64,000 nucleotides of DNA from an uncultured Actinomycetota bacterium (GTDB lineage Bacteria; Actinomycetota; Actinomycetes; JACCUZ01). Shown here piece by piece: positions 4,997 to 40,680 of this stretch. Where the stretch lies: assembly GCA_963723975.1 (NCBI GenBank), contig CAVRTI010000002.1, forward strand, positions 199,473-263,472, given 5' to 3'. Within the stretch, counting starts at the first letter, position 1; every line of letters starts with the position of its first letter. Made by a program: the position numbers and the translations under genes. A model generated the notes under the pieces. It saw only the letters and a program-made list of their open reading frames with translations. It did no database searches and was not told the origin of the DNA.

Positions 4997-6003
4997 GCGT
5001 GGCCGCGAGGCCAACCACCGCGGGGGACGACGCCGCCCGTCGCGCGACGGCCGACCTGGTCGCCGGCCTGCCGTCGGCGCCCGCCGTCTGGTGCTCGGGC
5101 CTGCGCAAGCGGTACGGCCGGCAGCAGGCCGTCGAGGACGTGTCCCTCGAGGTGGACCGCGGCGAGATCGTGGGGCTGCTCGGTCCCAACGGGGCGGGCA
5201 AGACCTCGGTGATCAAGATGCTCCTCGGCCTGGTCCGCCCCGACGGGGGTGAGGTGATGCTCCTGGGGCAACCCGGCGCGGATCCCGGCGCGCGCACCCG
5301 CGTCGGCTACCTGCCGGAGCTCTTCCGGTACCAGCCGTGGCTGAGTGCGGCCGAGGTGCTGGCCCTCCACGTCCGGCTGTCGGGGATCGGCGTGACCGCG
5401 AAGGAGCAGCGCGACTGCCTGGCCCTCGTCGGCCTGGCCGAACGCACCGGCGACCGGCTGGGCGGCTTCTCGAAGGGGATGCAGCAGCGGCTCGGGCTGG
5501 CGGTCGCCCTGGTGGCCGGTCCGGAGCTGGTCGTCCTGGACGAGCCGACCAGCGCGCTGGACCCGCTGGGGCGCGCTGATGTGCGCGACATCGTGCTGGA
5601 ACTGAGGCGGCGGGGGGTCGCGGTGCTGCTGAACTCGCACCTGATCGGCGAGGTCGAGCGGGTCTGCGACCGGGTGGTCATCCTCGACCGGGGACGGGTC
5701 GCCGCGGCGGGCACGCTCGCCGAGCTGCTCGGCCAGCGCGAGCTCCATCTGCAGCTGGGCGACGTCTCCCCCGAGGCGGAGGCGCGACTGGCCGCGACCG
5801 GGAAGGTCCAGCGGGCCGGTGACTGGTTCACCCTGGCGCTGCCGAGCGACGACGACGGAGCCGCCGTGCCCGAGCTGGTGCGGGACCTGGCCGCCCTCGG
5901 GGTCCGGGTGCACGCGGTCGAGCCCGCGCGGATCACCCTGGAGGAGCGACTTCTCGGCATTCTGCGAGAGGGCGCCGCCGGCCGGTCGGGAGATGCCCGA
6001 TGA
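4993..6003 (+). CDS. ABC transporter ATP-binding protein
   Basis: GTGA overlap with the anti-sigma stop. Walker A GPNGAGKTS, signature FSKGMQQRL, Walker B LVVLDEPTSALD. Confidence 0.9.
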   Translation: MSVAARPTTAGDDAARRATADLVAGLPSAPAVWCSGLRKRYGRQQAVEDVSLEVDRGEIVGLLGPNGAGKTSVIKMLLGLVRPDGGEVMLLGQPGADPGARTRVGYLPELFRYQPWLSAAEVLALHVRLSGIGVTAKEQRDCLALVGLAERTGDRLGGFSKGMQQRLGLAVALVAGPELVVLDEPTSALDPLGRADVRDIVLELRRRGVAVLLNSHLIGEVERVCDRVVILDRGRVAAAGTLAELLGQRELHLQLGDVSPEAEARLAATGKVQRAGDWFTLALPSDDDGAAVPELVRDLAALGVRVHAVEPARITLEERLLGILREGAAGRSGDAR

Positions 6004-6861
6004 CGACGGCCCGGACGGTGCTGACCATCGCCGCCCTCACCCTGCGCGAGGCGTCCCGCCGGCGCGTGCTGCTGGCCCTCTCGGCGCTCACCGTCGTCCT
6101 GATCGCGCTCAGCGGCTGGGGCTTCTCACGCGTGGCGGCAGAGTCGGGCGGCAGCGCCCTCACCAGCGGCGAGGCGCGCCTCACGGCCTCCATCCTGCTC
6201 AACCTGGTGATGTTCGGCTTCAGCCTGATCGCGGCGCTGGGCACCGCCTTCCTCGCCGGCCCCACGCTGTCCGGTGAGACGGAGTCGGGGATCGCGCTGG
6301 CCGTGCTGGCCCGGCCGATACGTCGCTCTGCCTTCCTGCTGGGCAAGTGGCTGGGGTTGGTGGTGTTCGGCACCGGCTTCGTCGTCCTCGCCGGGCTCGC
6401 CCAGTGCCTCGTCGTCCGGGCGACGGTGGACTACTGGCCGCCGGAGCCGGCGGCCGCCCTCGCGCTGCTCGCGGCCCAGACGACGGTGCTGCTCACCCTC
6501 GCGCTGCTGCTCTCGACAGCCATCTCGCCGATGGCCTCGGGCGTGGTCGCGGTCGGCCTGTTCTGCACGACCTGGGTGGCCGGGGTGGTGGGCGGTATCG
6601 GTGACTCCCTCGGCAACGACTCCGTCGCGCGCGTGGGCACCGTGTCGCGGATGCTGCTGCCCACCGACGGCCTGTGGCAAGGGGCGATGCACGCGTTCCA
6701 GGACCCGTCGGTGTTCGTCACCTTCGGCGGCGCGGACGTCGAGGCCTTCCCGTTCCTCAGCGCGGCGCCGCTGACGGCTTCCTACCTCGGCGTGGACCGC
6801 GGTGTGGGTGGCGATGGTCTGGGGACTGGCGGCGAAGTCCTTCCTGCGCAAGGACCTGTGA
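6000..6861 (+). pseudogene. ABC-2 type transporter permease, frameshifted near 6789
   Basis: ATGA overlap with the ATPase gene. Several hydrophobic TM stretches. The expected C-terminus ...AWTAVWVAMVWGLAAKSFLRKDL-stop lies in the +1 frame (TGA 6859-6861). One extra nucleotide near 6789 makes frame 0 run on into the next gene. Confidence 0.8.
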
Positions 6862-6956
6862 CCGCCGGTCACGCACTTGCCGAAACCACCCTGCGGGCAG
6901 CCGAATCTGCGGCCATAGACTCTGATCCGTTCTCTACAGAGGAGCCCCGAACCCGC

Positions 6957-9900
6957 ATGCCCCGCGTCAGCGTCGTCGTGCCCATCTACAACGTCGAGCG
7001 ATACCTCCTCGACTGCCTCGAGTCGCTGGCGCAGCAGACGTTGGGCGATCTCGAGGTGGTGATGGTCGACGACGGCTCGACCGACTCCAGCGCCACCATC
7101 GCCGCAGCCTTCGCGGCCAAGGACGACCGCTTCGTCCTGGTGCAGCAACCCAACGGCGGCCTCGGCAACGCACGCAACACCGGCGCGGACCGGGCCACCG
7201 GCGACTACCTGGCCTTCGTGGACAGCGACGACATCGTCACGCGTAACGCGTACGAGCTGCTGGCCGGCTCGCTCGACCGCACCGGGTCCGACTTCGCGAC
7301 CGGGAACTTCCACCGGCTGACCACCGTGGGCACCCGGCAGGCCGGCATGGTCTTCACCGCGTTCAACGCCACCCGCGCGGGCACCCACGTGACGAAGCAT
7401 CCGGCTCTGCTCAACGACCGGACCGCCTGGAACAAGCTGTTCCGCCGCGCGTTCTGGGACGAGCACCAGTTCCGCTGGCCCGAAGGCGTGCTGTACGAGG
7501 ACATCCCGGTGACGCTGCCGGCGCACGTCCTGGCGCGCGCGGTCGACGTGGTGCGCGAGCCGGTCTACCTGTGGCGGGCCCGGGTGGGCGACAGCACGTC
7601 GATCACCCAGCGGCGGACCGAGCCGCGCGCCATCCGGGACCGGTTCGCCGCCGTGGACGGCGTGAGCCGGTTCATGGCCGAACGCGGTGAGCACGACCTG
7701 AAGGCACGCTACGACCGGTCGGTGGCCGAGCAGGACCTCAAGTACTTCCTGCAGCAGCTCGACGAGGCCGACGACGAGTTCCGGGCGCTGTTCCTCGAGC
7801 TGACCAACGACTACTTCGACCGGGCCCGGCCGGACGTCTTCGACGACCTGCCCGCGCTCGGGCGGCTGAAGTGGCACCTGGTGCGCCGCCGGCTGATGCC
7901 CGAGCTGCTCGAGGTGCTGCGGTTCGAGCGGGCCGGCGAGGTCGCCTACACCCCGATCGTGCGCAAGGGACGCAAGATCTACGGCGACTACCCGTTCCGG
8001 GACGACACCGAGCTCGCCATCCCGGCCGAGGTGTACCGGCTCGGCAAGGACGAGCTGCCGCTGCCGGCCCGGATCGAGGACGTCTGGTGGGACGGCGACG
8101 TGCTGCGGCTGTCCGGCTATGCGTACATCGCGTTCCTCGAGCTGCCGACCGAGCGGTCCGGCCGGATCCGGCTCACCCTGGAGGAGTCCGGCCACCCCGA
8201 GAGCGTCATCCCGCTCGAGACCCGCCGGGTCCGGCGGCCCGACGTCACCGAGAACGCCCCCGACGGCGTGACCGACTACGACGGGTCCGGCTGGGAGGCA
8301 TCGGTGCCGATCGCGGCGCTGCGGCACCGCGGCACGTTCCGGACCGGCAACTGGCGGCTCCGCGTCGAGGTGCGCACCAAGGGAGTCACCCGGCGGCGCT
8401 GGCTGTCGGGCACCGAGCCGGGTCGCGGGAAGCGGCCCGGCTGGACGACCGTCGACGGCGCGCGGATCGTCCCCACCACCACAGCGGGAAATTTCGCCGT
8501 CGAGGTGTCCACGACACCGGCCGAGGTGCAGGACGTCCGCCTCGACGGCACCGTCCTCGAGCTGACCGGCACGCTGCACGGTCGCCGGTTCGACCCGGCG
8601 ACCGCCTCGCTGCGGGCCGGCCGCGAGGACGGCACGTCGTCGCTGGAGCTGCCGGTCGCCACCGGCGGGTCGCCGGCAGCCGGGGAGACGCCGTTCGTCA
8701 GCCGGGTCGACGTCACCTGCCTGCTCGGCGGCGGCGAGGTCGACGAGACCCTGGCGCGCAGCCAGGACCTGGGCGACGGCGTCGTCTGGGACCTCTCGCT
8801 GCTCCCCGACGCCACCGGCGCTCGCATCCCCTTGTCGGCGGGCAGCGCGATGCCCGAGCAGCGGCTGACCCTGCAGGGTTCGGAGGTCCTCCTGCAGGTC
8901 ACCCGTACCGGCCGACTGCAGGTCATCGCCCGGCACCCGCGGCCCGAGGTGCACCAGGTGGGGTGGGCCGACGGCGGCTGGCTGGAGCTCACCGGCAGGT
9001 ACGCCGAGTCGACCGGCGCCCCGACCGAGCTGGTCCTCAGCGCGGCCGACCGGGCGGTGTCGCTGGCGGTGCCGATGACCCGCGACGGCGACCGGTTCAC
9101 CGTCCGGGTTCCCGCCACGGCGATGGTGACCCCCGGCGGCCCGATGCCGCTCGGCCAGGGGCAGTGGGACGTCTACTCCCGCCGCGCCGGCGAGCCGGGC
9201 CTCGTGCGGGTCAAGGTCGCCCGCTCGACCCTTCCGTCCCTGCCGCAGCGGCAGGTGGAAGGCTCCCGGGAGCTGATGGTGCTCGACGTCGACCACGACT
9301 GCCTCGCGCTGATGGTGTCCGGTGGCCTGCCGGTCGGCGAACGGAGCCGCGCCGGAGCGCGCCGACTGCGCAGCGAGGCCTACCCGGCGTACCTGCGCCA
9401 GCCGCTGCTGGACCAGGTGCTGGTCGATGCCTACGGTGCCGGCCGGTACGGCGACGACGCACGCGCCGTGCACGACGAGCTGGTCTCACGGGGCACCGGC
9501 CTCGACGTGGTCTGGGCGGTGCAGGACGGCCAGGCCGTGCCGCCGGGCGGCGCCCGCCCGGTGCCGCGGCGCGGCCGCGAGTGGTACGAGGCGCTGGCCA
9601 GGTCGAGGTTCGTGGTCACCAGCGACCTGCTGGGGGTCCCCGACCTGGCCGCCCGGCCCGGCCAGCGGGTACTGCAGACCTGGCACGGCGTCCCGGTCAC
9701 CGCGCTCGGCCTGGACGACGAGCACGCGGGCACCAGGCTCGGCCGCGGGTGGCAGGACCGCCTGCGGCGCGAGGCCGCGCGCTGGGACGTCCTGCTGTCT
9801 GCCGGCGCGCGCAGCACCGAGGTGCTGCAGCGGGCGTTCGGCGTGCAGGGCTCGGTGACCGAGACCGGGCTGCCCCGGCACGACCTGCTGGTCTCGCCGG

Positions 9901-25794: not shown

Positions 25795-26835
25795 TCACCC
25801 GCCGTAGGCCTCGATGTAGGCGTCGACCCGAGCGCGCACGCCCGCCTCGTCCAGGTCGAGATGCTCGAGGATGGTGTACCGGTCGGGCCGGGTGCTCGGT
25901 GCCAGGACGACGGCCTCGGCGAACTGCTCGGTCGACAGCCCCACGTCGGCAGGGACCCGCGGCAGCTGGTGCCGGCGCAGGCACCGGTCGATCTGCTCGG
26001 AGAGCCGCTGGTTGTCCCGGACGTACGCCGAGAAGAGGGCGCCCACCCCGGCCAGCTCGCCGTGGTTGGCGGTGCCCGGGAAGAGCTGGTCGATGGCGTG
26101 CATGATCTCGTGGTCCGCGCCGCTGCTGGGACGGCTGTCGCCCGCTGCGGTCATCGCCATGCCGGAGAGCACGAGGCCCTCCGCCAGCGCGGTGAGGAAG
26201 CCGTCCGACTCGATGCCGTCGGTGCGGTGCAGCACGGCCTCGGCGGCGGTGCGGGCGAACGTCACCGCCAGGCCGTCGACCGGCTCACCGCGCTCTCGGG
26301 ACGCCAGCCGCCAGTCTTCGCACGCGGTGATGTTGCTGACCAGGTCACCCACCCCGGACAGCACCATCTGCGGCGGCGAGGTGCGCACATAGTCGAGGTC
26401 GACCACCACCGCCACCGGTGGGACGACACCGAAGGACCCCTTGCCGCCCTCGTGCAGCAACGAGCTGACCGGTGAGGCGATGCCGTCGTGCGCGAGGTTG
26501 GTGGCGACGGCCACCATCGGCAGCCCGAGCCGCATGGCGGCGTACTTCGCCACGTCGAGCGTCCGGCCGCCGCCGATGCCCACCAGGGCGTCGTAGCTCT
26601 TGCCGCGCAGCTCGCCCTGCAGGTCGCCGGCCGCCTCCAGGCTGCCGCCGCGCACGGTGAAGATGTCGGCGTTGGCCAACGACGGCCGGATCGCCTCGAC
26701 GACGCTCTCGCCCTGACCCGGGCCGACGGCGACCGCGACGTGGCCGTCGGCGGAGATCCGGCGGTCGGAGAGCAGGTCGCCGAGCCCTGTCACCGCGCCC
26801 GCCCGGATGTCGATGAACAGCGGGCTGAGCAGCAT
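25795..26835 (-). CDS. iron-containing alcohol dehydrogenase family, sn-glycerol-1-phosphate dehydrogenase-like
   Basis: Motifs GIGGGRTLDVAKYAA and VAVATNLAHDGIASPVSS, typical of G1PDH (AraM/EgsA-type) enzymes. Start trimmed to ATG 26835. Confidence 0.8.
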   Translation of the reverse strand: MLLSPLFIDIRAGAVTGLGDLLSDRRISADGHVAVAVGPGQGESVVEAIRPSLANADIFTVRGGSLEAAGDLQGELRGKSYDALVGIGGGRTLDVAKYAAMRLGLPMVAVATNLAHDGIASPVSSLLHEGGKGSFGVVPPVAVVVDLDYVRTSPPQMVLSGVGDLVSNITACEDWRLASRERGEPVDGLAVTFARTAAEAVLHRTDGIESDGFLTALAEGLVLSGMAMTAAGDSRPSSGADHEIMHAIDQLFPGTANHGELAGVGALFSAYVRDNQRLSEQIDRCLRRHQLPRVPADVGLSTEQFAEAVVLAPSTRPDRYTILEHLDLDEAGVRARVDAYIEAYGG

Positions 26836-26840
26836 CCGGG

Positions 26841-27584
26841 CTAGTAGTGGCACGCGATCTCCCGAGCCTTGACGAGGTCGTCGTGGTTGTCGACCTCGAC
26901 CCACGGCAGCGTCCCGATCGGCGCGACCCCCACCTCGCCGCCGGTGTCCACCAGCGTCTGGTAGCCGTCCTCGTAGTAGAGGTCGGGGTCGCGCTGCCAG
27001 GTGGCCTCGAGGGCGTCGGCCAGCGCACCGGCAGCACGGGCCTCGATCAAGGTCGCGCCGATGTACTCCCCCGCTGCCTCGGCGGGCTTCATCAGCTTGG
27101 TGATCCGGCTCATCCGGCCGGCGCTGTCGAGGACGACCTTCATCTCCTCCTCGGCCAGCGCCTTCTGGTCGTCGAGCGCGAGCAGGATGCTTGCGGCGCC
27201 GTCCTGCTCGCGGGCGGCCAGCAGGGTGCGCTCGACGTCGACCGGGTGCACCGTGTCTCCGTTGACGAGCAGGGCACCCTCGGCGAAGTGGTCACGCGCG
27301 AGCCACAGCGAGTAGCAGTTGTTCCACTCCTCGGCCTTGTCGTTGTGCACCAGGGTGAGACGGACGCCGTGCCGTGCCTCGAGGGCGGCCTGGCGCTCCT
27401 CGACGGCCTCGGCGCGGTAGCCCACCACCACCGCGACGTCCGCCAGCCCGACGGCAGCGAGGTTGCGCAGTGCGATGTCGAGGATCGTGGTCTCGCCGTC
27501 GACCGGCACCAACGCCTTCGGCAGGGTGTCTGTGTACGGCCGCAGTCGACGGCCGGCTCCTGCGGCCAGCACCATGCCAATCAT
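26841..27584 (-). CDS. nucleotidyltransferase (cytidylyltransferase / LicC-like)
   Basis: ATG 27584 with a GGGAG RBS. N-terminal motif MVLAAGAGRRLRPYTDTLPKALVPV. Confidence 0.85.
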   Translation of the reverse strand: MIGMVLAAGAGRRLRPYTDTLPKALVPVDGETTILDIALRNLAAVGLADVAVVVGYRAEAVEERQAALEARHGVRLTLVHNDKAEEWNNCYSLWLARDHFAEGALLVNGDTVHPVDVERTLLAAREQDGAASILLALDDQKALAEEEMKVVLDSAGRMSRITKLMKPAEAAGEYIGATLIEARAAGALADALEATWQRDPDLYYEDGYQTLVDTGGEVGVAPIGTLPWVEVDNHDDLVKAREIACHY

Positions 27585-27627
27585 CTGAGGTGGGCTCCCT
27601 TGGTCGACGTCCACGCAACGATGGACG

Positions 27628-28668
27628 CTACCGTCCCGGGCTGCGCAGCCTCCGCGGGCTGGTGAGGAACCCGACTCCCCACGCTCCGTGCATGGTGGCC
27701 AGGACGACGGGCAGCCAGGCCCGTGACCGGAGCGGCAGACCGCGCCCGACGACCGCCGTACCGACGACGACACCGGCGGCATACCCCACCGGCGCGAGCA
27801 GCGCCGGGCGCCACGCGGTCACCCCGAGGACGGTGCCCGCCGTGACGGCCAGCACCGCAGCCGGTGGAGCGAGGTAGCGCAGGCTGGCGGTCCCCTCGTG
27901 CTCGCGCATGACGACTCGCCGCCACCGGCCGTAGTCGCGGTACTGCCGGGCCAGCGCGCGCAGGTCGGAGCGCGGCCGGTACGTCACCGTCAGGCGGGGC
28001 GTGAACCAGACGACCCCGCCGCTCTCCAGGATCCGGTGGTTGAGCTCCCAGTCCTGGGCCCGCAGGAACGTCTCGTCGTAGCCCCCGAGCCGCTCGAGGA
28101 CCTCGCGGCGGAAGGTGCCGAGGTACACGGTCAGCGCCGGGCCCTCCTCGCCGCCGACATGGAAGCTGGCCTGCCCGACCCCGATCGAGCTGGTCATCGC
28201 GGCCGCGACGGCACGCTGGAAGTCGGTGACGCCTTCGGCCGACATCACCCCGCCGACGTTGTCCGCACCGGTGCGCTGCAGCGTCTCGACCGCGATCCGC
28301 AGGTAGTCGTCGGGGACGAGTGCGTGCCCGTCCAACCGGACGACGATGTCGTACCGTGCGGCGGCCAGCGCCCGGTTCAGGCCGGCACCGGTGGCGCCGG
28401 TCGGGTTCGGGACCAGCCGCACCCGAGCGTCGGAGGCAGCAAGCTCGGCGGCGATCTCGTCGGTGCGGTCCCGGGACGGACCCAGGGCCAGCACGACCTC
28501 GACCGGGCCGGCGTAGTCCTGGCCGAGCACGGTCGACACGGCGGCCCGCAGGTGGTGCTCCTCGTCGAGCACCGGGACGACGACCGAGACGCCGGGCCAC
28601 CCCTCGACGTCGGCGGCGGGCCCCGCGGAGCGGTCGGGGACGGGATCGGGAGCAGCCATGGCGCCCAC
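27628..28668 (-). CDS. glycosyltransferase family 2
   Basis: VSVVVPVLDEEHHL and RLDGH motifs. C-terminal TM segments. Confidence 0.85.
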   Translation of the reverse strand: MGAMAAPDPVPDRSAGPAADVEGWPGVSVVVPVLDEEHHLRAAVSTVLGQDYAGPVEVVLALGPSRDRTDEIAAELAASDARVRLVPNPTGATGAGLNRALAAARYDIVVRLDGHALVPDDYLRIAVETLQRTGADNVGGVMSAEGVTDFQRAVAAAMTSSIGVGQASFHVGGEEGPALTVYLGTFRREVLERLGGYDETFLRAQDWELNHRILESGGVVWFTPRLTVTYRPRSDLRALARQYRDYGRWRRVVMREHEGTASLRYLAPPAAVLAVTAGTVLGVTAWRPALLAPVGYAAGVVVGTAVVGRGLPLRSRAWLPVVLATMHGAWGVGFLTSPRRLRSPGR

Positions 28669-30270: not shown

Positions 30271-30410
30271 CGTTTTCCTCGGTGCGGTCCGGGCAAGCCC
30301 CCCGGCGAGACATCGACCGGGTGGCACCCAGCGTGCCGCCGCCGCGTCGGTCGGGGGACCTGCCTCCGGCGCGACCAGAGTGCACGCGCAGCGTGCGGGA
30401 GGTACGGCTC

Positions 30411-31085
30411 ATGACCGAGAAGGACCTGACACCCCTGTCGGCGGACGAGCTGGCCGCTGAGGCCGGCACCGCACTTCCGCCGAAGGAAGTGATCTCGCTG
30501 CTCGACCTGAACGTCGACCTCGACCTCGCCCTCGACCTGGCTGCACCGATCGACCTCGCGGTCGCCGCCAACGCCAACGTGGCCGCGCCGATCGACGCGG
30601 CCGTCGGCGCCAACATCCTCTCGGTGGGCTCCACCGCTCAGGCACTGGCTGCCCAGGACGCCTCCATCGACCAGGGGATCAGCGGCGAGGCGGTCGCCAA
30701 CAGCACCCAGGACAGCACCCTCGACCAGGGCAACGACGTCGTGGACGCGGGCACGACCGCACCGGCCGCCGACGGCACGACCGCTCCGGCTGCCGACGCC
30801 GGCAGCACCGGCGTGACGTCCGACCCGACCTCGATGCTGGACGGGGACCTGCTCAACGTCGACGTGAACGCCGCGCTGGACGCGGACATCGCCGCGCCGA
30901 TCGCGGGTGCGGTGGCCGCCAACGCCAACGTCGCCGCGCCGATCGACGCCGCTGTGGCGGCCAACGTCGGGTCCGTCGCCTCGTCGGCGACCGCGGTCGC
31001 CGACCAGGACGTCGTCATCAACCAGCACCTGGACGGCGTCACAGCCGAGGCGAACACCGATCAGCAGTCCGACATCACCCAGTAG
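30411..31085 (+). CDS. acidic Ala/Asp/Asn-rich repeat protein (224 aa), unknown family
   Basis: ATG 30411 with GGGAGG at 30397-30402. Two internal repeats of about 75 aa sharing AVAANANVAAPIDAAV. No Cys, Trp, Tyr, Phe or Arg and no signal peptide. High GC3. Confidence 0.7.
   Translation: MTEKDLTPLSADELAAEAGTALPPKEVISLLDLNVDLDLALDLAAPIDLAVAANANVAAPIDAAVGANILSVGSTAQALAAQDASIDQGISGEAVANSTQDSTLDQGNDVVDAGTTAPAADGTTAPAADAGSTGVTSDPTSMLDGDLLNVDVNAALDADIAAPIAGAVAANANVAAPIDAAVAANVGSVASSATAVADQDVVINQHLDGVTAEANTDQQSDITQ
30564..30965 (+). repeat. in-frame direct repeat: 51-nt cores at 30564-30614 and 30915-30965 (45/51 identical), plus a 24-nt tandem x2 at 30750-30797
   Basis: Aligned by eye. Most differences between the 51-nt copies are synonymous third-position changes. 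The 24-nt tandem unit encodes GTTAPAAD twice. Confidence 0.85.
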
Positions 31086-31097
31086 GCCACGCCACCC

Positions 31098-33459
31098 GTG
31101 ACTGCCACGCCTGACGCCCCGGCCCGGGCGGGAGCCTCCCCCGCGGAGGTGCCCGCCCGGGCTGCTGGCGTGGAGCTGATCGGGGAGCTGCCCGGATCGG
31201 GATACAAGAAGCCGCCGGCTCTCGTACGGCGAGCGGACGGGCAGACGGTCCAGCTGACCCGGCTGCTGTTCATCGTGCTGGAGGAGATCGACGGCCGGCG
31301 AAGCTACGACGAGCTCGCAGCCGCGGTCAGCAACTCCTTCGGCCGTCAGGTGAGCACCGGAGCAGGTCGCCACCCTCGTCGAAGGCCAGCTCCGTCCCCT
31401 CGGCGTGCTGAAGCTGGCGGACGGGACCGAGCCGGAGGTCAGGAAGACCAACCCGTTGCTGGCGGTCCGGCTCAAGAAGGTCGTCACCGACCCCGCCGTC
31501 ACCCGCCGCCTCACCGCACCGTTCGCGGTGCTCTTCCACCCGCTGGTCGTCGTGCCGTTCACGCTGGCTTTCGTGGTCACCGCCGGGTGGGTGCTGTTCC
31601 GCGAGGGACTCGCCGCCGCCACCCGGGATGCCTTCACCGAGCCCGGCCTGTTCCTGCTGGTCTTCGCCGTGACCGCGCTCTCGGCCGGCTTCCACGAGTT
31701 CGGCCACGCCGCCGCGTGCCGCTACGGCGGCGCGACCCCCGGCGCGATGGGCGCCGGGCTCTACCTGGTCTGGCCGGCGTTCTACACCGAGGTGGGCGAC
31801 AGCTACCGCCTCGGCCGGGCGGGCCGGGTCCGCGTCGACCTCGGCGGGCTGTACTTCAACGCGCTGTTCGCGGTCGCCATGTTCGGGGTCTGGGCCGTCT
31901 TCCGCTGGGAGGCGCTGCTGCTCATCATCGCGGCGCAGGTCGTGCAGATGGTCCGGCAGCTGGCGCCGCTCGTCCGGTTCGACGGCTACCACATCCTCGC
32001 CGACCTCACGGGAGTGCCCGACCTCTACTCGCACATCAAGCCCACGCTGGCCGGCCTGCTGCCGCACCGCTGGCGGCACGAGTCCGCCCTGACCTGGTGG
32101 GCCCGTGCGGTGGTCACCGCGTGGGTCCTGCTCGTCGTACCGCTGCTGCTGCTGTCCCTGGTCCTGCTGGTGGTGGCTCTGCCCCGGGCCGCCGCCACGG
32201 CGTGGGAGAGCGTCGGCAACCAGTGGGACGTGCTGACCCAGGCCTGGTCCGCGGGCGCCGTGGCCGAGGTGGGCGTGCGGGTCCTGTCGATCCTCGCGCT
32301 GGCCCTGCCGGTGCTGGCGATGGTCTACCTGCTCGTCCGGGTGGTGCGCCGGACCGTGGTTTCGGTGGCGCGCTCGACCGAGGGTCGGCCGGCCCGCCGG
32401 GCCGTGGCCGTCGCGACCGCGCTCGCCCTGGTCGCGGGCCTCGCGTGGGCCTGGTGGCCCGACGAGGACACCTACCGGCCGATCCAGGGCAACGAGCGGG
32501 GCACGCTGCTCGACGCCGTACCCGCCGCGGTCGCCGACCGGGTTCCCGTGCTCCAGCGGGCCAGGTCCGCCGCCGCGCCCGCCGCGCCGTCGCTGAAGGA
32601 GGGCCAGACCGGGGCCGCCCAGACGCTGTGGGCCAGCGACGAGGCGCCGCCGCCGAAGGACGAGCCGCAGCTGGCGATGGTCCTGGTACCGGCGGACGCC
32701 GCGCCGCAGGGAGCTGCCGGCGCCCTCGAGGTTCCGGCCGAGTCGCCGACCTGGGTCTTCCCGTTCAACAAGCCCGACGCTCCGCTCGAGGGCGACAACC
32801 AGGCGCTCGCCGTCAACACCACGGACGGCTCCATCCGCTATGACGTGGCGTTCGCCCTCGTCTGGGCCGACGACGGCGAGGTCCTGAACGCCAACGAGGC
32901 CTACGCGTTCGCCAGCTGCACCGGCTGTGCCGCGGTAGCGATCGGCTTCCAGGTGATCCTGGTGCTCGGTCAGGCCGACGTCGTCGTGCCGCAGAACATC
33001 GCGGCGGCGGTCAACTACAACTGCGTGGCGTGCGCGACGTACGCGCTCGCCCAGCAGCTCGTGCTCACCCTCGACGGGCCGCTCAGCGACGAGGGGATGG
33101 CGGCGATCGAGGCAGTCTGGGCGCAGATCCAGCAGTTCGGCAGCACCATCCAGGACGTGCCGGTCGGTCAGATCCAGTCGACGCTGGCCGGCTTCGAGAA
33201 GCAGATCCTCGACATCGTCGAGGCCGAGTCCGCCGGCGAGACACCGACGGCTCCGCCCTCGCCGACGGGCTCCTCGCCGACCGCCGACCCGTCCGCTTCC
33301 ACGTCGGGCGGGACGGCACCGACCGGCGAGCCGTCGATCTCCGGCTCACCAGGGCAGACCCCGTCGCCGGCGACGACCGGCGACGGGACGACGGGCACGC
33401 CCACCGCGACCGCCGAGCCGACCGGCGCGGCTTCCTCGGCCGCGGCCACCGTTCCGTGA
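31098..33459 (+). pseudogene. membrane HExxH (M50-like) metalloprotease with PqqD/RRE-like N-terminal domain, frameshifted at 31353-31359
   Basis: GTG 31098 lies 12 nt after the upstream stop. N-terminus QLTRLLFIVLEEIDGRRSYDELAAAVSNSFGRQVS-PEQVATLVEGQLRPLGVL resembles PqqD. Polytopic core carries HEFGH. A C-terminal region of about 300 aa has two CxxC pairs and a Pro/Thr/Ser tail. ORFs 31098.. and 31405.. join across a +1 indel. Confidence 0.8.
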
Positions 33460-35398: not shown

Positions 35399-36166
35399 AT
35401 GGAACCCAGCTCACGTGCGCAGCAATGGCTGGCCGAGGCTCTCGGCACCGGCTTCCTCGTCTTCATCGGCGCCGGGTCGATCCCCGCGACGCTGATCCTC
35501 GGCAACGCCGGCGACGTCGCCTTCTCGATGGCCGACCTCGGCATGATCTCCTTCGCCTTCATGCTGGTGATCGTCGGCATGGTCTACGCCCTCGGCCACA
35601 TCTCCGGCTGCCACATCAACCCGGCGGTCACCGTCGCGCTGGCCGCCACCGGCAAGTTCGCGTGGAAGGACGTGCCCGGCTACGTCGCGGCGCAGGTCGT
35701 CGGCGCGACAGCGGGCGCGCTGGCCATCGTCGGCACCCTCGGCAAGACCGCGGCCGACCTCGGCCTCGGCATGACGACGTACGGCGACAGCACACCGTTC
35801 GCGCGCGCCACCTTTGCCGAGTTCATCGGCACCGCCCTGCTGGCGTTCGTCATCTTCGGTGTCATCGACGGCCGGGCAGCGCCTGGCTGGGCCGGCCTGG
35901 CCATCGGATCGATCGTCTTCGCCATCATCATCGTCGTGGGCCCGGCGACCGGCGCATCGCTCAACCCGGCCCGCTACCTCGGCCCGATGTTCGTCGGCGA
36001 GGGCTTCGACGCGACCGTGCAGTGGTCGCAGCTGCCTGCCTACCTCATCGGTGAGTTCCTCGGCGCCATCGCCGGTGCGTTCGCCTACCTGACGGTGGCC
36101 CGGACCCGCCCGGCGACCAGCGTCCCCGCCCAGTCATCCCGTGTCGCAGAAGAGGTGTCCGCATGA
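35399..36166 (+). CDS. glpF: MIP-family channel (aquaglyceroporin-like)
   Basis: Two NPA boxes (HINPAVT, SLNPARY). ATGA overlap with dhaK. Confidence 0.9.
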
Positions 36167-37157
36167 AGAAGCTCATCAACGCCCCCGACGACGTCGTCGT
36201 GGAGGCCCTGCGCGGCATCGCCGCCGCCCACCCGTCGCTGTCCGTCGACGTCGAGAACAAGGTCATCAGCCGGATCGGCGGCGCGACGGCCGGCAAGGTC
36301 GGACTGGTCTCCGGCGGCGGCTCCGGTCACGAGCCCCTGCACGGCGGGTTCGTCGGGTTCGGCATGCTCGACGCCGCCTGCCCCGGCGAGGTGTTCACCT
36401 CGCCGGTGCCCGACCAGATGCTGCTCGCCACCCAGCGGGTCGACGGCGGCGCCGGGGTCCTGCACATCGTGAAGAACTACACCGGCGACGTGCTGAACTT
36501 CCAGATGGCCGCCGAGCTCGCGTCGGACGAGAACATCGAGGTCGCCTCGGTCGTCGTCAACGACGACGTCGCGGTGCAGGACAGCCTGTACACCGCCGGC
36601 CGTCGCGGCACCGGTGCGACGGTCTTCGTCGAGAAGATCGCCGGCGCGCTCGCCGAGCAGCGCAAGGAGCTCAAGTCGGTGGCCGACGTCGCCCGCGAGG
36701 TCAACGAGCGGTCGCGGTCGTTCGGCGTCGCGCTCACCGCGTGCACCCACGCCGGCCTCGGGACAGCCGGGTTTCGACCTGCCCGACGACGAGATCGAGC
36801 TGGGCGTCGGCATCCACGGCGAGCCGGGTCGGGAGCGCGGCCCGATGCGGTCCGCGCGCCGAGATCGTCGACTTCTCGCTGGCCGCCATCGACGACGACA
36901 TGCCGCTCGAGGGCGAGCTGGCGGTGATGGTCAACGGCATGGGCGGCACCCCGCTCATCGAGCTGTACGTGGTCTTCGAGGAGGTACGCCGGGTGGTGGC
37001 CGCCAAGGGGGCGACCATCGCGCGGGCCCTCGTCGGCAACTACATCACCAGTCTGGACATGACCGGCGCCTCGATCACCGTGCTGCGCCTGACCCCGGAC
37101 CTCACCACGCTCTGGGACGCTCCTGTGGAGACGCCCGCACTGCGATGGGGGCGCTGA
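36163..37157 (+). pseudogene. dhaK: dihydroxyacetone kinase subunit DhaK, two frameshifts (near 36751 and 36860)
   Basis: The conserved DhaK sequence is spread over three frames: ...[10 protein letters not shown]...ALTACTH | [35 protein letters not shown] | [10 protein letters not shown]...NGMGGTP...RWGR-stop. Confidence 0.85.
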
Positions 37158-37165
37158 GGACCATC

Positions 37166-37819
37166 ATGGAAGAGGTGCTGCTGGTGGACGTCACGACCGT
37201 CGCCGACTGGATCACGCGGGCCAGCTCGGACTTCGAGGAGAACAAGGACCACCTCACGCACCTCGACTCCGCGATCGGGGATGCCGACCACGGCATCAAC
37301 CTGGTCCGGGGGTTCACCGCCGCCGTCGCGGCGGTGGCCGAGAAGCAGCCCCCGACCCCTGGCGAGCTGCTCACCCTGGTGGGCAACACGCTGATCTCCA
37401 AGGTCGGGGGCGCTTCCGGCCCGCTGTACGGGACGGCGTTCCGGCGGGCCGGCAAGGTCCTGGGCACCGAGTCCGACGTCGCCCCGGAGGCGCTCGGGGC
37501 GGCACTGCAGGCCGGGCTGGAAGGCGTGCAGGGGCTGGGAGCCGCGGCCGAGGGCGACAAGACGATGGTCGACGCGCTCGCTCCCGCGGTCCGCGCCTAC
37601 CAGCACGCGCTCACCACCGGCGCGACCATCGCGGACGCGGCGCAGGCGGCCGCTGCCGCAGCCGAGAAGGGAGCGGAAGCGACCATCCCGATGCAGGCGC
37701 TCAAGGGCCGCGCGAGCTATCTGGGCGCCCGCAGCGTCGGTCACCAGGATCCCGGCGCGACGTCCACCGCGCTGCTGCTCGCGGCGCTGGCCGCGGCACT
37801 GGGCGGGCCCGGGTCATGA
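37166..37819 (+). CDS. dhaL: dihydroxyacetone kinase ADP-binding subunit DhaL
   Basis: DSAIGDADHGINL and GGASGPLYG motifs. ATG 37166 with GAGGA 6 nt upstream; ATG 37145 is an alternative. Confidence 0.85.
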   Translation: MEEVLLVDVTTVADWITRASSDFEENKDHLTHLDSAIGDADHGINLVRGFTAAVAAVAEKQPPTPGELLTLVGNTLISKVGGASGPLYGTAFRRAGKVLGTESDVAPEALGAALQAGLEGVQGLGAAAEGDKTMVDALAPAVRAYQHALTTGATIADAAQAAAAAAEKGAEATIPMQALKGRASYLGARSVGHQDPGATSTALLLAALAAALGGPGS

Positions 37820-39430
37820 GCTCGTCCTACTCCGCAGTCACCTGCTCCCCCGGGGTGGCGCTGGCCCCGGGTTGGCGACCGCGGGGTGCGGTGCCCGACC
37901 CGGCACCGCCGGCGGTCGTCACGACGGCGGCGGTCCGGGACGCGTTCGAGGCCACCGCCGCTCACCTCGACCAGCTGGCCGGGTCGTTCCGCGGCGACGG
38001 CGTCACGGCGTACGCCGACATCCTCGACGCCGAGGCGCTGATCGCCCGGGACCCGGCCTTCCTGGCCGAGGTGGTCGCGCTGATGGAGGACGACGGCGTC
38101 GAGGCCGTCGCAGCGGTCACCCGGGTGGCCGAACGCCACGCCGACCTGATGGCCGGGCTGGCGTCCGCCGACCTGCGCGAGCGGGCCGCCGACATCCGTC
38201 AGGTCGGCCGGATGGTCATCGACCGGCTCGGCGGGCGGGTGCAGCCCACCCCGCCCGCCGGCCCGTTCGTCCTGCTGGCGCAGGAGGTCACCGCACCGGA
38301 CCTGCTGGAGTACGCCGAGCAGCTGGCCGGTGCGGTCTCGGTGCTCGGCGGCCCGGCCTCGCACGCGTCGATCGTGGCGCGCTCGCTCGGCGTACCGCTG
38401 GTGGTGGGGGTCAGCCCACCGCCCTGGATGCCGCGGAGGGCGCGCCGGTCCTGGTCGACGGCGACGCCGGTGCGCTCGTGGTGGCGCCCGACCCTGCGGC
38501 GGTCCGCCGGGTGCACGCGCGGGCGGGCGGCCCGTCGTCGGTCGAGCTCGCAGCGGCCCGGGCGCTGCCTGCCCGGACGGCCGACGGCACCGACGTCACA
38601 CTGCTGGCGAACGTCGCGTCGAGCCTCGAGGCCCGGCGCGCTCTGGAGGCCGGAGCAGCGGGCGTCGGTCTGCTCCGGACCGAGCTGCCGTTCCTCGATG
38701 CCCAGGACTGGCCGAGCCGCGACCAGCACGAGGCAGCTCTGCGCCCGGTGCTGGAGGTCCTGGGCGGCCGCCCGGTCACCGTGCGGCTGCTCGACTTCAC
38801 CCACGACAAGGTGCCGCCGTTCCTGCGTGGCCGCGGTGACGAGTCGTCGCTGGCCCTGCTGCTGGCCCACGGCGACGCGCTGGACTCCCAGCTCCGTGCG
38901 GTCCTCGCCGCCGGGCGCGGGGTCGACCTGCGGCTGATGCTGCCCATGGTCACCCGGCCCGAGGAGCTGGAGCAGGTGCGGGCCCGGCTGGGTCCGGCGG
39001 CCCGTGCGGTCGGTGTGGAGCGGCTCCCCGCGCTGGGCGCGATGCTCGAGCTGCCGGCCGCGATCGACGCCCTGCCCGAGCTGGTCGCGGTGGCGGACTT
39101 CTTCTCCCTCGGGACCAACGACCTCACGGCGTCCACCCTGGGGCTGGACCGGTCCGACCCGCGGCTGACGCCTGCGCTCGCGACCGATCCGGCGGTGCTG
39201 CGCCTGGTCGAGCGCGCGGTGGTGCTCACCGGTCAGGCCGGCCGGCCGCTCTCGCTGTGCGGCGACGCCGGGGCCGACCCGCAGGCGTTCGCCCGGCTGC
39301 TGGCTGCCGGGGTCCGGACCTTCAGCGTCGCGCCGTCCCGGATCGACCAGGTCCGTGCGATGGTGCGTGCCGCGTCGGTCGCCCCCGACCGCGACCCCTG
39401 CTCAGCCAGGCGGCCGGTTCCGGTGCGTAG
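37816..39430 (+). pseudogene. PEP-utilising phosphotransferase (PTS enzyme I-like), frameshifted near 38416; 3' end uncertain
   Basis: ATGA overlap with dhaL. GGPASHASIVARSLGVPLVVG (catalytic His), SLGTNDLT, LCGDAGADP. ORFs 37816.. and 37872.. join across a -1 indel in a C run. There is no in-frame stop until 40289, so the end is inferred. Confidence 0.75.
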
Positions 39431-40202
39431 CGCGGGGCTCGGCGTGCAGCGCGCGGGTCGCACCCAGGTCGCGGGAGACCGCCCGCGCGGTCTCGACCAC
39501 CGCTCGGGACAGCCGCGCCTTCGCCTGCCGTTGCAGCAGCCGCTCGGCCGGCCCGACGACGCCCAGCGAGCCGACCGCGCGGCCGCCGTGGTCGAAGATG
39601 GCGGCCGCGATGCCACCGTCGCCGACGTTCGCCTCCTGGTTCTCGACCGCGAAGCCCTTGTCCAGCACCGTTCCCAGTGCCTTGCGCAACGCCTCGGGCG
39701 ACGTGCGGGTGCGACCGGTCAGTGCGCGCAGCGGCTGAGCGAGCAGGGCGTCGACCTCGCCGTCCGGCAGGGCTGCGACCATCGCCTGGCCGAGTGCGCA
39801 GGCGTGCCACGGGATCGTCGCGCCGACCTCGAGGATCTGCACGGCGTCGTCCGGGCGGAACTCGTGGTGCACCACCATCACCGCGTCGTCCACCAGGACC
39901 GAGACCCAGACCGCCTCGTCGACCTGCCGCGCCAGCGAGCCGGCGCGCAGCATCGAGCGGGCCCGCAGCTCCGAGCCGGCCAGGTAGGCGTTGCCGAGCT
40001 GGAGCACCCGCGGCCCGAGCGAGTACCTGCCGGTCGCCACGTCCTGGCTCACCAGCCCGCTCTGCTCCAGGGTGCGCAGCAGGCCGTGCACGGTGGGCTT
40101 GGCCAGTTCCAGCCGGGCGCCGAGCTCGGTGACGCCGAGGGTGGGGCTGCCCGAGCCCAGCTCGTGCAGGATCCGCGCCGCCCGGTCGACCGACTGGATC
40201 AT
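39402..40202 (-). CDS. IclR-family transcriptional regulator
   Basis: N-terminal wHTH (SVDRAARILHELG...LGVTELGARLELAKPTVHGLLRTLEQSGLV) and an IclR effector domain. Confidence 0.9.
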   Translation of the reverse strand: MIQSVDRAARILHELGSGSPTLGVTELGARLELAKPTVHGLLRTLEQSGLVSQDVATGRYSLGPRVLQLGNAYLAGSELRARSMLRAGSLARQVDEAVWVSVLVDDAVMVVHHEFRPDDAVQILEVGATIPWHACALGQAMVAALPDGEVDALLAQPLRALTGRTRTSPEALRKALGTVLDKGFAVENQEANVGDGGIAAAIFDHGGRAVGSLGVVGPAERLLQRQAKARLSRAVVETARAVSRDLGATRALHAEPRATHRNRPPG

Positions 40203-40245
40203 GCCTGTCCCCTTCCTCGCGGGCGCCGGACCGATCCGGGACCCC

Positions 40246-40262
40246 GTTCAGCATCGTCGAAC
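40246..40262. promoter_or_regulatory. operator-like 17-mer GTTCAGCATCGTCGAAC
   Basis: 15/17 identical to 35289-35305. Lies in the IclR / dhaM divergent intergenic region, 20 nt upstream of the dhaM ATG. Confidence 0.45.
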
Positions 40263-40281
40263 ACAGATGAGGATAGAGGCA

Positions 40282-40680
40282 ATGACTGAGAACGCCACGG
40301 TCGGCATCGTGCTGCTGTCGCACAGCCGGGCGATCGCCGAGGGCGCGGCCGACGTGGCCGCGCAGGTGAGCGCGGGCGCGGTGCGGATCGTCGGCGTCGG
40401 CGGCACCGAGGACGGCCGGCTCGGCACGTCGCTGGACGCGCTCGCCGGTGCCGTCGACAAGGTGTCCGCGGGTGCCGGCGTCGTGGTCATCCCCGACCTC
40501 GGCAGCGCGGTCCTGACGGTCAAGGCCTACCTCGCCGACTCCGAGGCGTCCGGCGTGGTCGTCGCCGACGCACCCTTCGTCGAGGGCGCCGTCGCGGCAG
40601 CAGTCACCGCGTCCGGCGGTGCGACCCTCGCCGAGGTCCTCGCTGCAGCGGAAGGGGCGCGCGATGTCCGAAAGCTCTGA
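40282..40680 (+). CDS. dhaM: DhaM-type PTS EIIA(Man)-like phosphotransfer domain protein
   Basis: ATG 40282 with GAGGATAGAGG upstream. VGIVLLSHSRAIAEGAADV (phospho-His motif). Confidence 0.85.
   Translation: MTENATVGIVLLSHSRAIAEGAADVAAQVSAGAVRIVGVGGTEDGRLGTSLDALAGAVDKVSAGAGVVVIPDLGSAVLTVKAYLADSEASGVVVADAPFVEGAVAAAVTASGGATLAEVLAAAEGARDVRKL

Follow-up and report, generated by a model that had tools for sequence, protein, structure and literature searches.

An acidic repeat protein and a site-2-protease-like membrane metalloprotease with an RRE-like domain encoded by a conserved gene pair of Actinomycetota

Gene 1 and its acidic repeat protein

A 64,000-nucleotide stretch of DNA (the window) from contig CAVRTI010000002.1 (assembly GCA_963723975.1) of an uncultured Actinomycetota bacterium carries two adjacent genes, gene 1 and gene 2, which are the subject of this study. 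Gene 1 (30411..31085; ATG at 30411, TAG at 31083-31085), defined by its open reading frame (ORF) and composition, encodes an acidic repeat protein of 224 aa, the putative substrate of the gene 2 product. Gene 2 (31098..33459; 786 aa after frame correction) encodes a site-2-protease-like intramembrane metalloprotease, preceded by a predicted RiPP recognition element (RRE; RiPP, a peptide made by the ribosome and modified after translation) and followed by an outer CxxC domain, as deduced from the ORF, hidden Markov model (HMM) matches, homologues and AlphaFold modelling. All features of the pair described below lie on the + strand. The GTG start codon of gene 2 at 31098 is located 12 nt past the gene 1 stop codon, as the original prediction for this DNA had it, and in the same frame; the two genes are probably translationally coupled. 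A Shine-Dalgarno-like GGGAGG motif, read from the sequence, is present at 30397..30402, 8 nt 5' of the gene 1 ATG.

The gene 1 product contains 54 Ala and 28 Asp residues, with 34 acidic residues (D+E) against only two Lys, which gives a net charge of -32. Cys, Trp, Tyr, Phe and Arg do not occur at all in its 224 residues. In six neighbouring proteins of the window these five amino acids make up 16%, and the chance of finding none of them in 224 residues is approximately 1e-17. Neither a signal peptide nor a transmembrane (TM) segment was found in the gene 1 sequence, so that the ORF and composition agree with the original description of the protein. Comparison with 13 orthologues demonstrated that codon position 3 differs 2-4 times as often as positions 1 and 2, which marks gene 1 as a genuine gene subject to purifying selection, as opposed to an artefact of high GC content.

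Family alignments (120 homologues) revealed a leader-like N-terminal segment, about residues 7-31 (TPLSADELAAEAGTALPPKEVISLL; 30429..30503), in which E13, L22, P23, K25, E26, V27 and S29 are invariant. The leader motif has a single match across the whole window. In the divergent homologues P0286 and P0300 the N-terminal motif (...ELEAExxEALPERxxMS...) is kept, with a long variable stretch parting it from the first repeat module. The retention of this segment despite the long linkers is what would be expected for an independent recognition element.

The remainder of the protein is built of two modules, delimited with the use of alignments and AlphaFold. Module 1 (about residues 30-106; 30498..30728) starts with LLDLNVDLDL..AAPIDLAVAANANVAAPIDAAVGAN and continues into an amphipathic beta-hairpin with invariant Q82, Q88, Q100 and Q106, and the hairpin that ends module 2 (about residues 139-224; 30825..31082) has Q199, Q205, Q218 and, at the C-terminus, Q224 as its invariant Gln residues. 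The modules share 58% identity over 84 aa, with an alignment score of 185 versus 45 +/- 7 for shuffled sequences, and each follows the consensus LL(D)LNVDxxLALDxAAPIxxAVAANANVAAPIDAAVxAN, then an amphipathic strand-turn-strand. The two repeats of about 75 aa noticed previously were thus confirmed, with the addition of a variable Gly/Thr/Pro/Asp linker of about 32 aa between them (about residues 107-138; 30729..30824), which had not been mentioned. The short strands DASIDQ, DSTLDQ, DVVINQ and QSDITQ are likewise present, and all eight strand Gln residues are invariant in the 120 homologues. The length of the linker varies; it exceeds 200 aa in P0250, P0258 and P0261, in which neither the leader nor the modules are changed. 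These expanded linkers consist of short tandem units, e.g., GNxxGTLDxxTGxV and NGTLDxVNDT.

Approximately 4000 homologues of gene 1 were found, forming 518 clusters at 50% identity. Gene 1 is better conserved than its protease: when the clade of the window is compared with Arthrobacter, the identity is about 65% for gene 1 versus 54% for the protease. No family match to gene 1 was obtained in Pfam (full length, E 0.1), NCBIfam, PADLOC or PDB sequence-profile searches and, with the Pfam scan of 120 members pointing the same way, gene 1 does fall outside any characterized family, as had been supposed. The strands had been likened to curlin-type Q/N ladders, and a search for a beta-solenoid or amyloid-like prediction had been suggested. 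AlphaFold provided neither a beta-solenoid nor a confident fold, so the likeness to the ladders did not go beyond resemblance. Only two hairpins reached a predicted local distance difference test (pLDDT) value of 55-70, the strands in module 1 comprising residues 75-105, and Foldseek returned zero matches to the gene 1 model. Given the pattern of invariant Gln across its strands and how extremely it is conserved, we speculate that the matured protein may form a tightly packed, self-assembling structure.

The membrane metalloprotease encoded by gene 2

The reading frame of gene 2 is broken in the window. DNA comparison with the intact orthologue of a close relative (L001) located one extra G in the GG at 31359..31360; the frame breaks after ...FGRQVST, and the corrected protein reads ...FGRQVSTEQVATL... 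across this site. A break had been predicted here and is real, only the junction is FGRQVSTEQVATL and not QVS.PEQV. Intact homologues of 787 aa exist, e.g., P0122 (87% identity, full coverage). The frameshift is probably an assembly error, since a dhaK-like gene in the same window (36163-37160) is split over three frames, which implies at least two indels within 1 kb, and since the gene 2 orthologue in the metagenome-assembled genome of a close relative (L005, 6001-6258) is broken at a different place, its ORF stopping after 85 aa. An interruption at another position in L005 fits assembly errors better than a pseudogenization common to both.

The central part of the protein, about residues 131-452 (31489..32454), is a seven-TM core with the protease active site, recognized by hydropathy, the positive-inside rule, AlphaFold and NCBIfam. 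In the AlphaFold2 model, built on P0122 with 117 homologues (pLDDT 72, predicted TM-score (pTM) 0.61), the TM helices have pLDDT values of 85-97. The zinc-binding motif HEFGH (residues 199-203; 31693..31707) is located at the cytoplasmic end of TM2, is invariant in the 117 homologues and is followed by a beta-hairpin at residues 214-230. The second motif, QLAPLVRFDGYH (residues 287-298; 31957..31992), would supply the third zinc ligand (Asp); the same set shows no variation at its Q, P, D, G and Y. Site-2 proteases of the M50 family carry an NxxPxxxxDG motif, which QLAPLVRFDGYH resembles with Gln in place of the usual Asn. Both catalytic motifs were placed at the cytoplasmic ends of TM helices by hydropathy as well as by AlphaFold.

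The best NCBIfam match was NF041824, the daptide intramembrane metalloprotease family, which covers residues 40-313 of gene 2 (profile positions 18-292 of 379) with an E-value of 1.8e-23. The homologue from the divergent locus L164 matched the same family at E 6.8e-31 and 107.7 bits, also under the equivalog cut-off. NF058609, the YydH/LiaK epipeptide protease family, matched residues 193-307 (E 1.2e-10), far under its equivalog cut-off. Judging from these profile matches, gene 2 is homologous to the daptide protease, although not an equivalog of it. The NCBIfam match and the invariant HEFGH and QLAPLVRFDGYH motifs agree with the original proposal of a polytopic HExxH protease and place gene 2 among enzymes of the site-2 kind.

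According to hydropathy and charge, the cytoplasmic side comprises the N-terminus, both catalytic motifs and the loop RVVRRTVVSVARSTEGRPARR, while the acidic C-terminal domain is located outside. The extracytoplasmic domain, delimited by topology and alignment (about residues 455-713; 32461..33237), contains WVFPFN, CTGC (32917-32928) and CVAC (33022-33033), then two helices, and its four Cys are invariant in the 117 homologues. A disordered Pro/Thr/Ser-rich tail (33238..33456), apparent from the sequence and from pLDDT values below 40, closes the protein, so that the HEFGH motif, the two CxxC pairs and the P/T/S tail described before were all found in place. The outer domain had neither a family match in Pfam nor a fold match in Foldseek, and its AlphaFold confidence was low; Foldseek also gave no identification of the membrane core.

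The divergent locus L164 provided a natural separation of the two parts. Its protease (5116-7023) has 635 aa and is devoid of the outer domain, whereas the next ORF (7020-7862), overlapping the protease stop codon, aligns to the outer domain with 30% identity (E 6e-21) and has both CxxC pairs. This separate ORF begins with a Sec-type signal peptide, MTKNRLTALLILLICSLLIAAPQPASA/EG, which, beside the topology, locates the domain outside the cell, where the original prediction had put it. An extracytoplasmic CxxC domain, fused or separately encoded, is always part of the system. An 82-aa ORF and RsbU/HATPase-type genes are located downstream of the split outer-domain ORF.

The cytoplasmic N-terminal domain of gene 2, about residues 20-105 (31155..31413), is modelled as an RRE/PqqD-like winged helix, an assignment drawn from AlphaFold, Foldseek and weak HMM matches. 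In the AlphaFold2 model, three strands (26-30, 41-44 and 50-53) are followed by three helices (55-63, 70-81 and 87-101), with pLDDT above 90. The only high-probability Foldseek matches of the gene 2 model in PDB were both to this domain: PqqD (5sxy; probability 0.98, TM-score 0.62, root-mean-square deviation 3.0 A over 90 columns) and the leader-bound lasso peptide RRE TbiB1 (5v1u/5v1v; TM-score 0.59-0.61).

When the isolated N-terminal domains of 32 gene 2 family members were scanned against Pfam and NCBIfam, PF05402 (PqqD) was matched by 10 of the 32, with the best E-value of 0.0075 and about 16 bits versus a cut-off of 23.4 bits; the other Pfam matches were to further winged-helix families, also sub-threshold. 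The NCBIfam matches fell mostly on peptide-chaperone families, namely RiPP_bind_ApyI (24 of 32), PQQ_PqqD (TIGR03859; 13 of 32, best E 0.0048, cut-off of 46 bits not reached) and daptide_HExxH (10 of 32), plus lasso PqqD and ScmD, all of them sub-threshold. Full-length gene 2, scanned as a 787-aa protein, had no Pfam match at E 0.1, neither to PqqD nor to M50, and the HMM check advised for the frame-corrected product (PF05402 and PF02163) reached the threshold with neither family. The assignment of the RRE-like domain therefore rests on its fold and on convergent weak matches, which together support it. Of the PqqD-like segment foreseen originally, the beta3-alpha3 fold and the Foldseek similarity to PqqD and TbiB1 held, while PF05402 stayed below threshold. 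PDB sequence-profile searches with the gene 1 family, the gene 2 family and the RRE-like domain alone gave nothing meaningful.

Linkage of the pair and its possible function

A genome scan with the gene 2 profile revealed relatives in at least 564 species genomes. In the genomic survey anchored on gene 2, which comprised 83 loci, gene 1 was found directly upstream on the same strand in 82, and the sole exception had no upstream DNA (82 of 82 informative loci); the gaps between the genes were mostly 6-16 nt. The reciprocal survey anchored on gene 1 found gene 2 immediately downstream in all 62 informative metagenomic loci. The conserved synteny of the coupled pair, on which the original prediction depended, is therefore borne out from both sides. 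The loci spanned several actinobacterial orders and at least three classes, including Micrococcales, Propionibacteriales, Micromonosporales, Pseudonocardiales, Geodermatophilales, Mycolicibacterium, Nitriliruptorales and Microthrixaceae. Among the best 80 loci were those of Arthrobacter, Pseudarthrobacter, Sinomonas, Pedococcus, Phycicoccus, Nocardioides, Kribbella, Marmoricola, Planosporangium and Plantactinospora, as well as Saccharothrix, Actinokineospora, Blastococcus, Mycolicibacterium, Sporichthyaceae, Nitriliruptorales and Microthrixaceae.

An all-versus-all clustering of ORFs within +/-6 kb of these best 80 loci detected no other conserved neighbour, and in particular no transporter, modifying enzyme or regulator. 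In the window the pair does lie between two LCP genes, both of which match PF03816, with a 4HBT thioesterase gene between gene 2 and the downstream LCP gene. The LCP, 4HBT and glycosyltransferase family 2 (GT2) surroundings were seen only in the window's own clade; elsewhere the pair resides among unrelated housekeeping genes such as cytochrome oxidase (Micromonospora), xseAB-ispH...ychF (Pedococcus) or glyA (Nocardioides). The suggested link of the pair to the LCP ligases did not survive this comparison, and a functional connection to the LCP ligases, the thioesterase or GT2 was rejected. No matches to the pair were found in the phage and plasmid collections, and a defence or mobile-element origin was likewise rejected in view of this result and the core-genome contexts. 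The pair is best read as an obligate, stand-alone, vertically inherited two-gene operon of Actinomycetota. Both this linkage and the architecture of the pair are solid, and they are surprising for RRE biology.

We lean, with modest confidence, towards gene 1 being the substrate of the gene 2 protease. In the proposed mechanism, gene 1 would be made in the cytoplasm as a protein with a leader-like N-terminus of about 25-30 aa and two self-similar modules, and gene 2 would act as its dedicated processing enzyme, whose HExxH/DG active site lies on the cytoplasmic side of the membrane. The RRE-like domain would dock the leader and present it to this active site, where the leader would be cut off, following the same logic as in MpaP (daptide) and EpeP/YydH (epipeptide). 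Such leader-peptidase logic would here be applied to a full-size, strongly conserved protein without modifying enzymes. The matured two-module protein, most likely a self-assembling beta-hairpin structure, might then act at the envelope together with the extracytoplasmic CxxC domain, fused or separately secreted, its export being possibly performed by the protease itself. Our confidence in this fate at the envelope is much lower than in the relation of substrate and protease. A still bolder version, in which the RRE-site-2-protease is both leader peptidase and exporter of a full-size protein, the outer CxxC domain or its separately secreted form nucleates or anchors a Gln-laddered beta-hairpin polymer on the envelope and the whole constitutes a hitherto unrecognized Sec-independent surface-protein pathway shared throughout Actinomycetota, appears doubtful to us.

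Several observations weigh against the processing of gene 1 by gene 2 as described. The AlphaFold model of gene 1 with 120 homologues had a pLDDT of 53 and pTM of 0.22, i.e., no usable fold. The window protein scored 83.3 bits with NF041824 versus the 300-bit equivalog cut-off, the Pfam thresholds for PqqD and Peptidase_M50 were not reached by gene 2, and every Foldseek E-value for its model was above 0.1. At 224 aa and more conserved than its protease, the putative substrate is unlike RiPP precursors. No transporter is linked to the pair in the 80 loci, and there is no known export route for a protein with a net charge of -32 and no signal peptide. Finally, if the frameshift in gene 2 were genuine, the copy in the window could be inactive.

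The absence of a signal peptide from gene 1 and of a linked transporter would suit another explanation, in which nothing is exported and the system is a regulatory sensor: the CxxC domain would sense an envelope or redox signal and gate the protease, and gene 1 would be a cytoplasmic signalling or inhibitory factor that is destroyed or activated, in a manner likened to the regulated intramembrane proteolysis of anti-sigma factors. A cytoplasm-facing site-2-type active site combined with a conserved outer domain with four invariant Cys also fits it, as does the placement of the pair among housekeeping genes of the core genome. However, gene 1 has no TM segment, anti-sigma or DNA-binding domain, no sigma factor is linked to it, and its extreme composition and repeats look structural, not regulatory; the separately secreted outer domain of L164, too, fits poorly with a protease-fused sensor. 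We regard the sensor as unlikely. The similarity of gene 2 to the daptide and epipeptide proteases, together with the leader-like N-terminus and repeated core-like modules of gene 1, could alternatively mean a true RiPP locus, with gene 1 as a multi-core precursor, gene 2 as the leader peptidase only, and the modifying enzymes and transporter encoded elsewhere. No conserved modifying enzyme or ABC transporter was found within +/-6 kb in the 80 loci, though, and modules of about 75 aa that are nearly invariant across orders differ from RiPP cores, which are short and hypervariable. Moreover, the distribution is broad and vertical, not patchy, Cys is absent from gene 1, and its Ser/Thr do not occupy evident conserved sites of modification, which makes such a locus very unlikely.

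The order of a protein gene and then a protease gene is also that of bacterial gasdermin operons, and the AlphaFold prediction of gene 1 contains two long amphipathic hairpins; gene 1 might accordingly be imagined as a gasdermin-like latent pore or toxin, the removal of whose N-terminus would free the hairpin modules to oligomerize and insert in the membrane, leading to cell death, defence or release of contents. In 29 of 120 gene 1 members the repeat module weakly matched positions 64-142 of the Pfam Gasdermin profile (PF04598), e.g., residues 154-231 of P0042 and 48-91 of P0038. With scores of 11-14 bits, where the cut-off is 25, and with close relatives as their source, these matches amount in effect to a single shared observation; PADLOC, its defence gasdermin models included, gave no matches (E <= 1), nor did PDB sequence or fold searches, and the Gasdermin matches were dismissed as noise. 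For a lipid-facing surface, the invariant Gln on the apolar side of both hairpins would be unusual, a net charge of -32 speaks against insertion into a membrane, and vertical inheritance in the core genome with absence from the phage and plasmid collections is unlike defence islands. The pore is, in our judgement, highly improbable. We give even less credence to gene 1 being a secreted peptidoglycan-binding protein whose adjacency to a protease would carry no substrate-enzyme meaning. The name 'peptidoglycan-binding protein' is attached to several gene 1 orthologues in RefSeq/UniRef, and the pair lies between LCP genes in the window's clade, but other orthologues are simply named 'hypothetical protein' and the LCP surroundings are clade-specific. 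None of 120 gene 1 members matched a peptidoglycan-binding domain (LysM, PG_binding, SPOR, etc.) in Pfam even at E 1, the signal peptide is missing, and a 100% adjacency with gaps of 6-16 nt is beyond chance.

Returning to gene 1 as the substrate of gene 2, the implications reach beyond this locus. RRE domains serve as markers for peptide natural-product clusters. Here, in hundreds of actinobacterial species, with Micromonospora, Arthrobacter, Nocardioides and Mycolicibacterium among them, a conserved and vertically inherited protein of the cell seems to be served by the same docking and intramembrane-protease logic. If this is true, the role of the RRE widens from secondary metabolism to protein maturation, and a handle is offered on an orphan family of about 4000 sequences without a Pfam or NCBIfam model, some of them carrying a RefSeq name that no domain supports. 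It would also point to an unexplored envelope-associated process, since the system always includes the extracytoplasmic Cys-containing domain. For genome mining, RRE-based searches will pick up the abundant gene 2 family as false 'RiPP clusters'.

Other genes of the window surround the pair and its LCP flanks. Upstream of the first LCP gene, on the - strand (25795-28668), there are GT2 glycosyltransferase, NTP-transferase-like and Fe-ADH-like genes. In the close relative L001 (1-7521) genes for an ABC-2 transporter and for CDP-alcohol phosphatidyltransferases come after the GT2/NTP-transferase/Fe-ADH-like genes. Taken together, this set has the look of a wall-glycopolymer (teichoic-acid-like) cluster, which would explain the presence of two LCP ligases. 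Directly after the second LCP gene, a MIP-family channel gene (35399-36166) is followed at 36163-40289 by dhaK/dhaL-like genes and a phosphotransferase system (PTS) enzyme-I-like ORF; from the ORF translations alone, this set looks like a glycerol/dihydroxyacetone utilization operon.

Comparison with known systems

A literature search found no description of the gene 1-gene 2 pair. What is new is that a conserved protein of full size is apparently subject to RiPP-style recognition of its leader and to cleavage in the membrane; the extracytoplasmic domain is new as well, and the protein family is an orphan. The parts of the pair may be compared with several known systems. Curli CsgA and other Gln/Asn-ladder amyloids share with gene 1 the short strand-turn-strand units with regularly spaced conserved Gln; the likeness is in flavour only, since gene 1 has no sequence or fold match to CsgA, no signal peptide and no beta-solenoid in AlphaFold. 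In contrast to RiPP precursors, gene 1 has no linked modifying enzymes in the 80 loci and consists of nearly invariant modules of about 75 aa instead of a short hypervariable core.

On the side of the protease, the site-2 proteases (RseP, SpoIVFB, Rip1; MEROPS M50, PF02163) have the same HExxH in a TM helix, the [N/Q]xxPxxxxDG motif in a later helix and the beta-hairpin after the HExxH helix. Gene 2 differs from them in having no PF02163 match at E 0.1 and no PDZ or CBS domains, and its presumed substrate is a soluble protein that would be recruited by the RRE-like domain, not a TM segment freed by a site-1 cut. The PqqD and RRE domains (PF05402; TbiB1, 5v1u/5v1v) share the beta3-alpha3 winged helix at a TM-score of about 0.6 and the weak matches to PqqD, ApyI, lasso PqqD and ScmD; the matches of gene 2 are, however, all sub-threshold, and its partner is a protein, not a short precursor. 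EpeP/YydH-LiaK (NF058609) is also a membrane M50-type HExxH protease, maturing a ribosomal peptide encoded in the same operon. Its similarity to gene 2 is limited to the catalytic core, residues 193-307, and the epipeptide operon, found in Bacillota, differs in its radical-SAM epimerase, ABC transporter and short peptide substrate. In a review (PMC10885120), EpeP is presumed not only to cut its peptide but also to export it; for the exit of a protein devoid of a signal peptide in the gene 1-gene 2 system, no other precedent is at hand.

The closest relative is MpaP, the daptide leader peptidase, described by Ren et al. 2023 (PMC10036551) as an intramembrane site-2 protease with an RRE fused to its N-terminus. 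Daptide clusters always contain the MpaB/C/D/M modification enzymes (MpaB, a DUF-RRE protein, with an oxidative decarboxylase, an aminotransferase and a methyltransferase as the partners), and their short precursors end in Thr and have a conserved acidic leader containing E-L...P (PMC10036551). MpaP and gene 2 are both actinobacterial and share the N-terminal RRE-type domain and the intramembrane HExxH core of the site-2 type, the best HMM match extending over both, and each is encoded beside a protein with a conserved acidic E-L...P leader, in the case of gene 2 the putative substrate. They differ in the score (83 versus 300 bits), in the lack of daptide enzymes near gene 2 in the 80 loci and in the partner, which for gene 2 has 224 aa, is built of repeats and has an invariant Gln as its last residue. 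Compared with MpaP, gene 2 additionally possesses three TM helices, the extracytoplasmic CxxC domain of about 260 aa and the PT tail.

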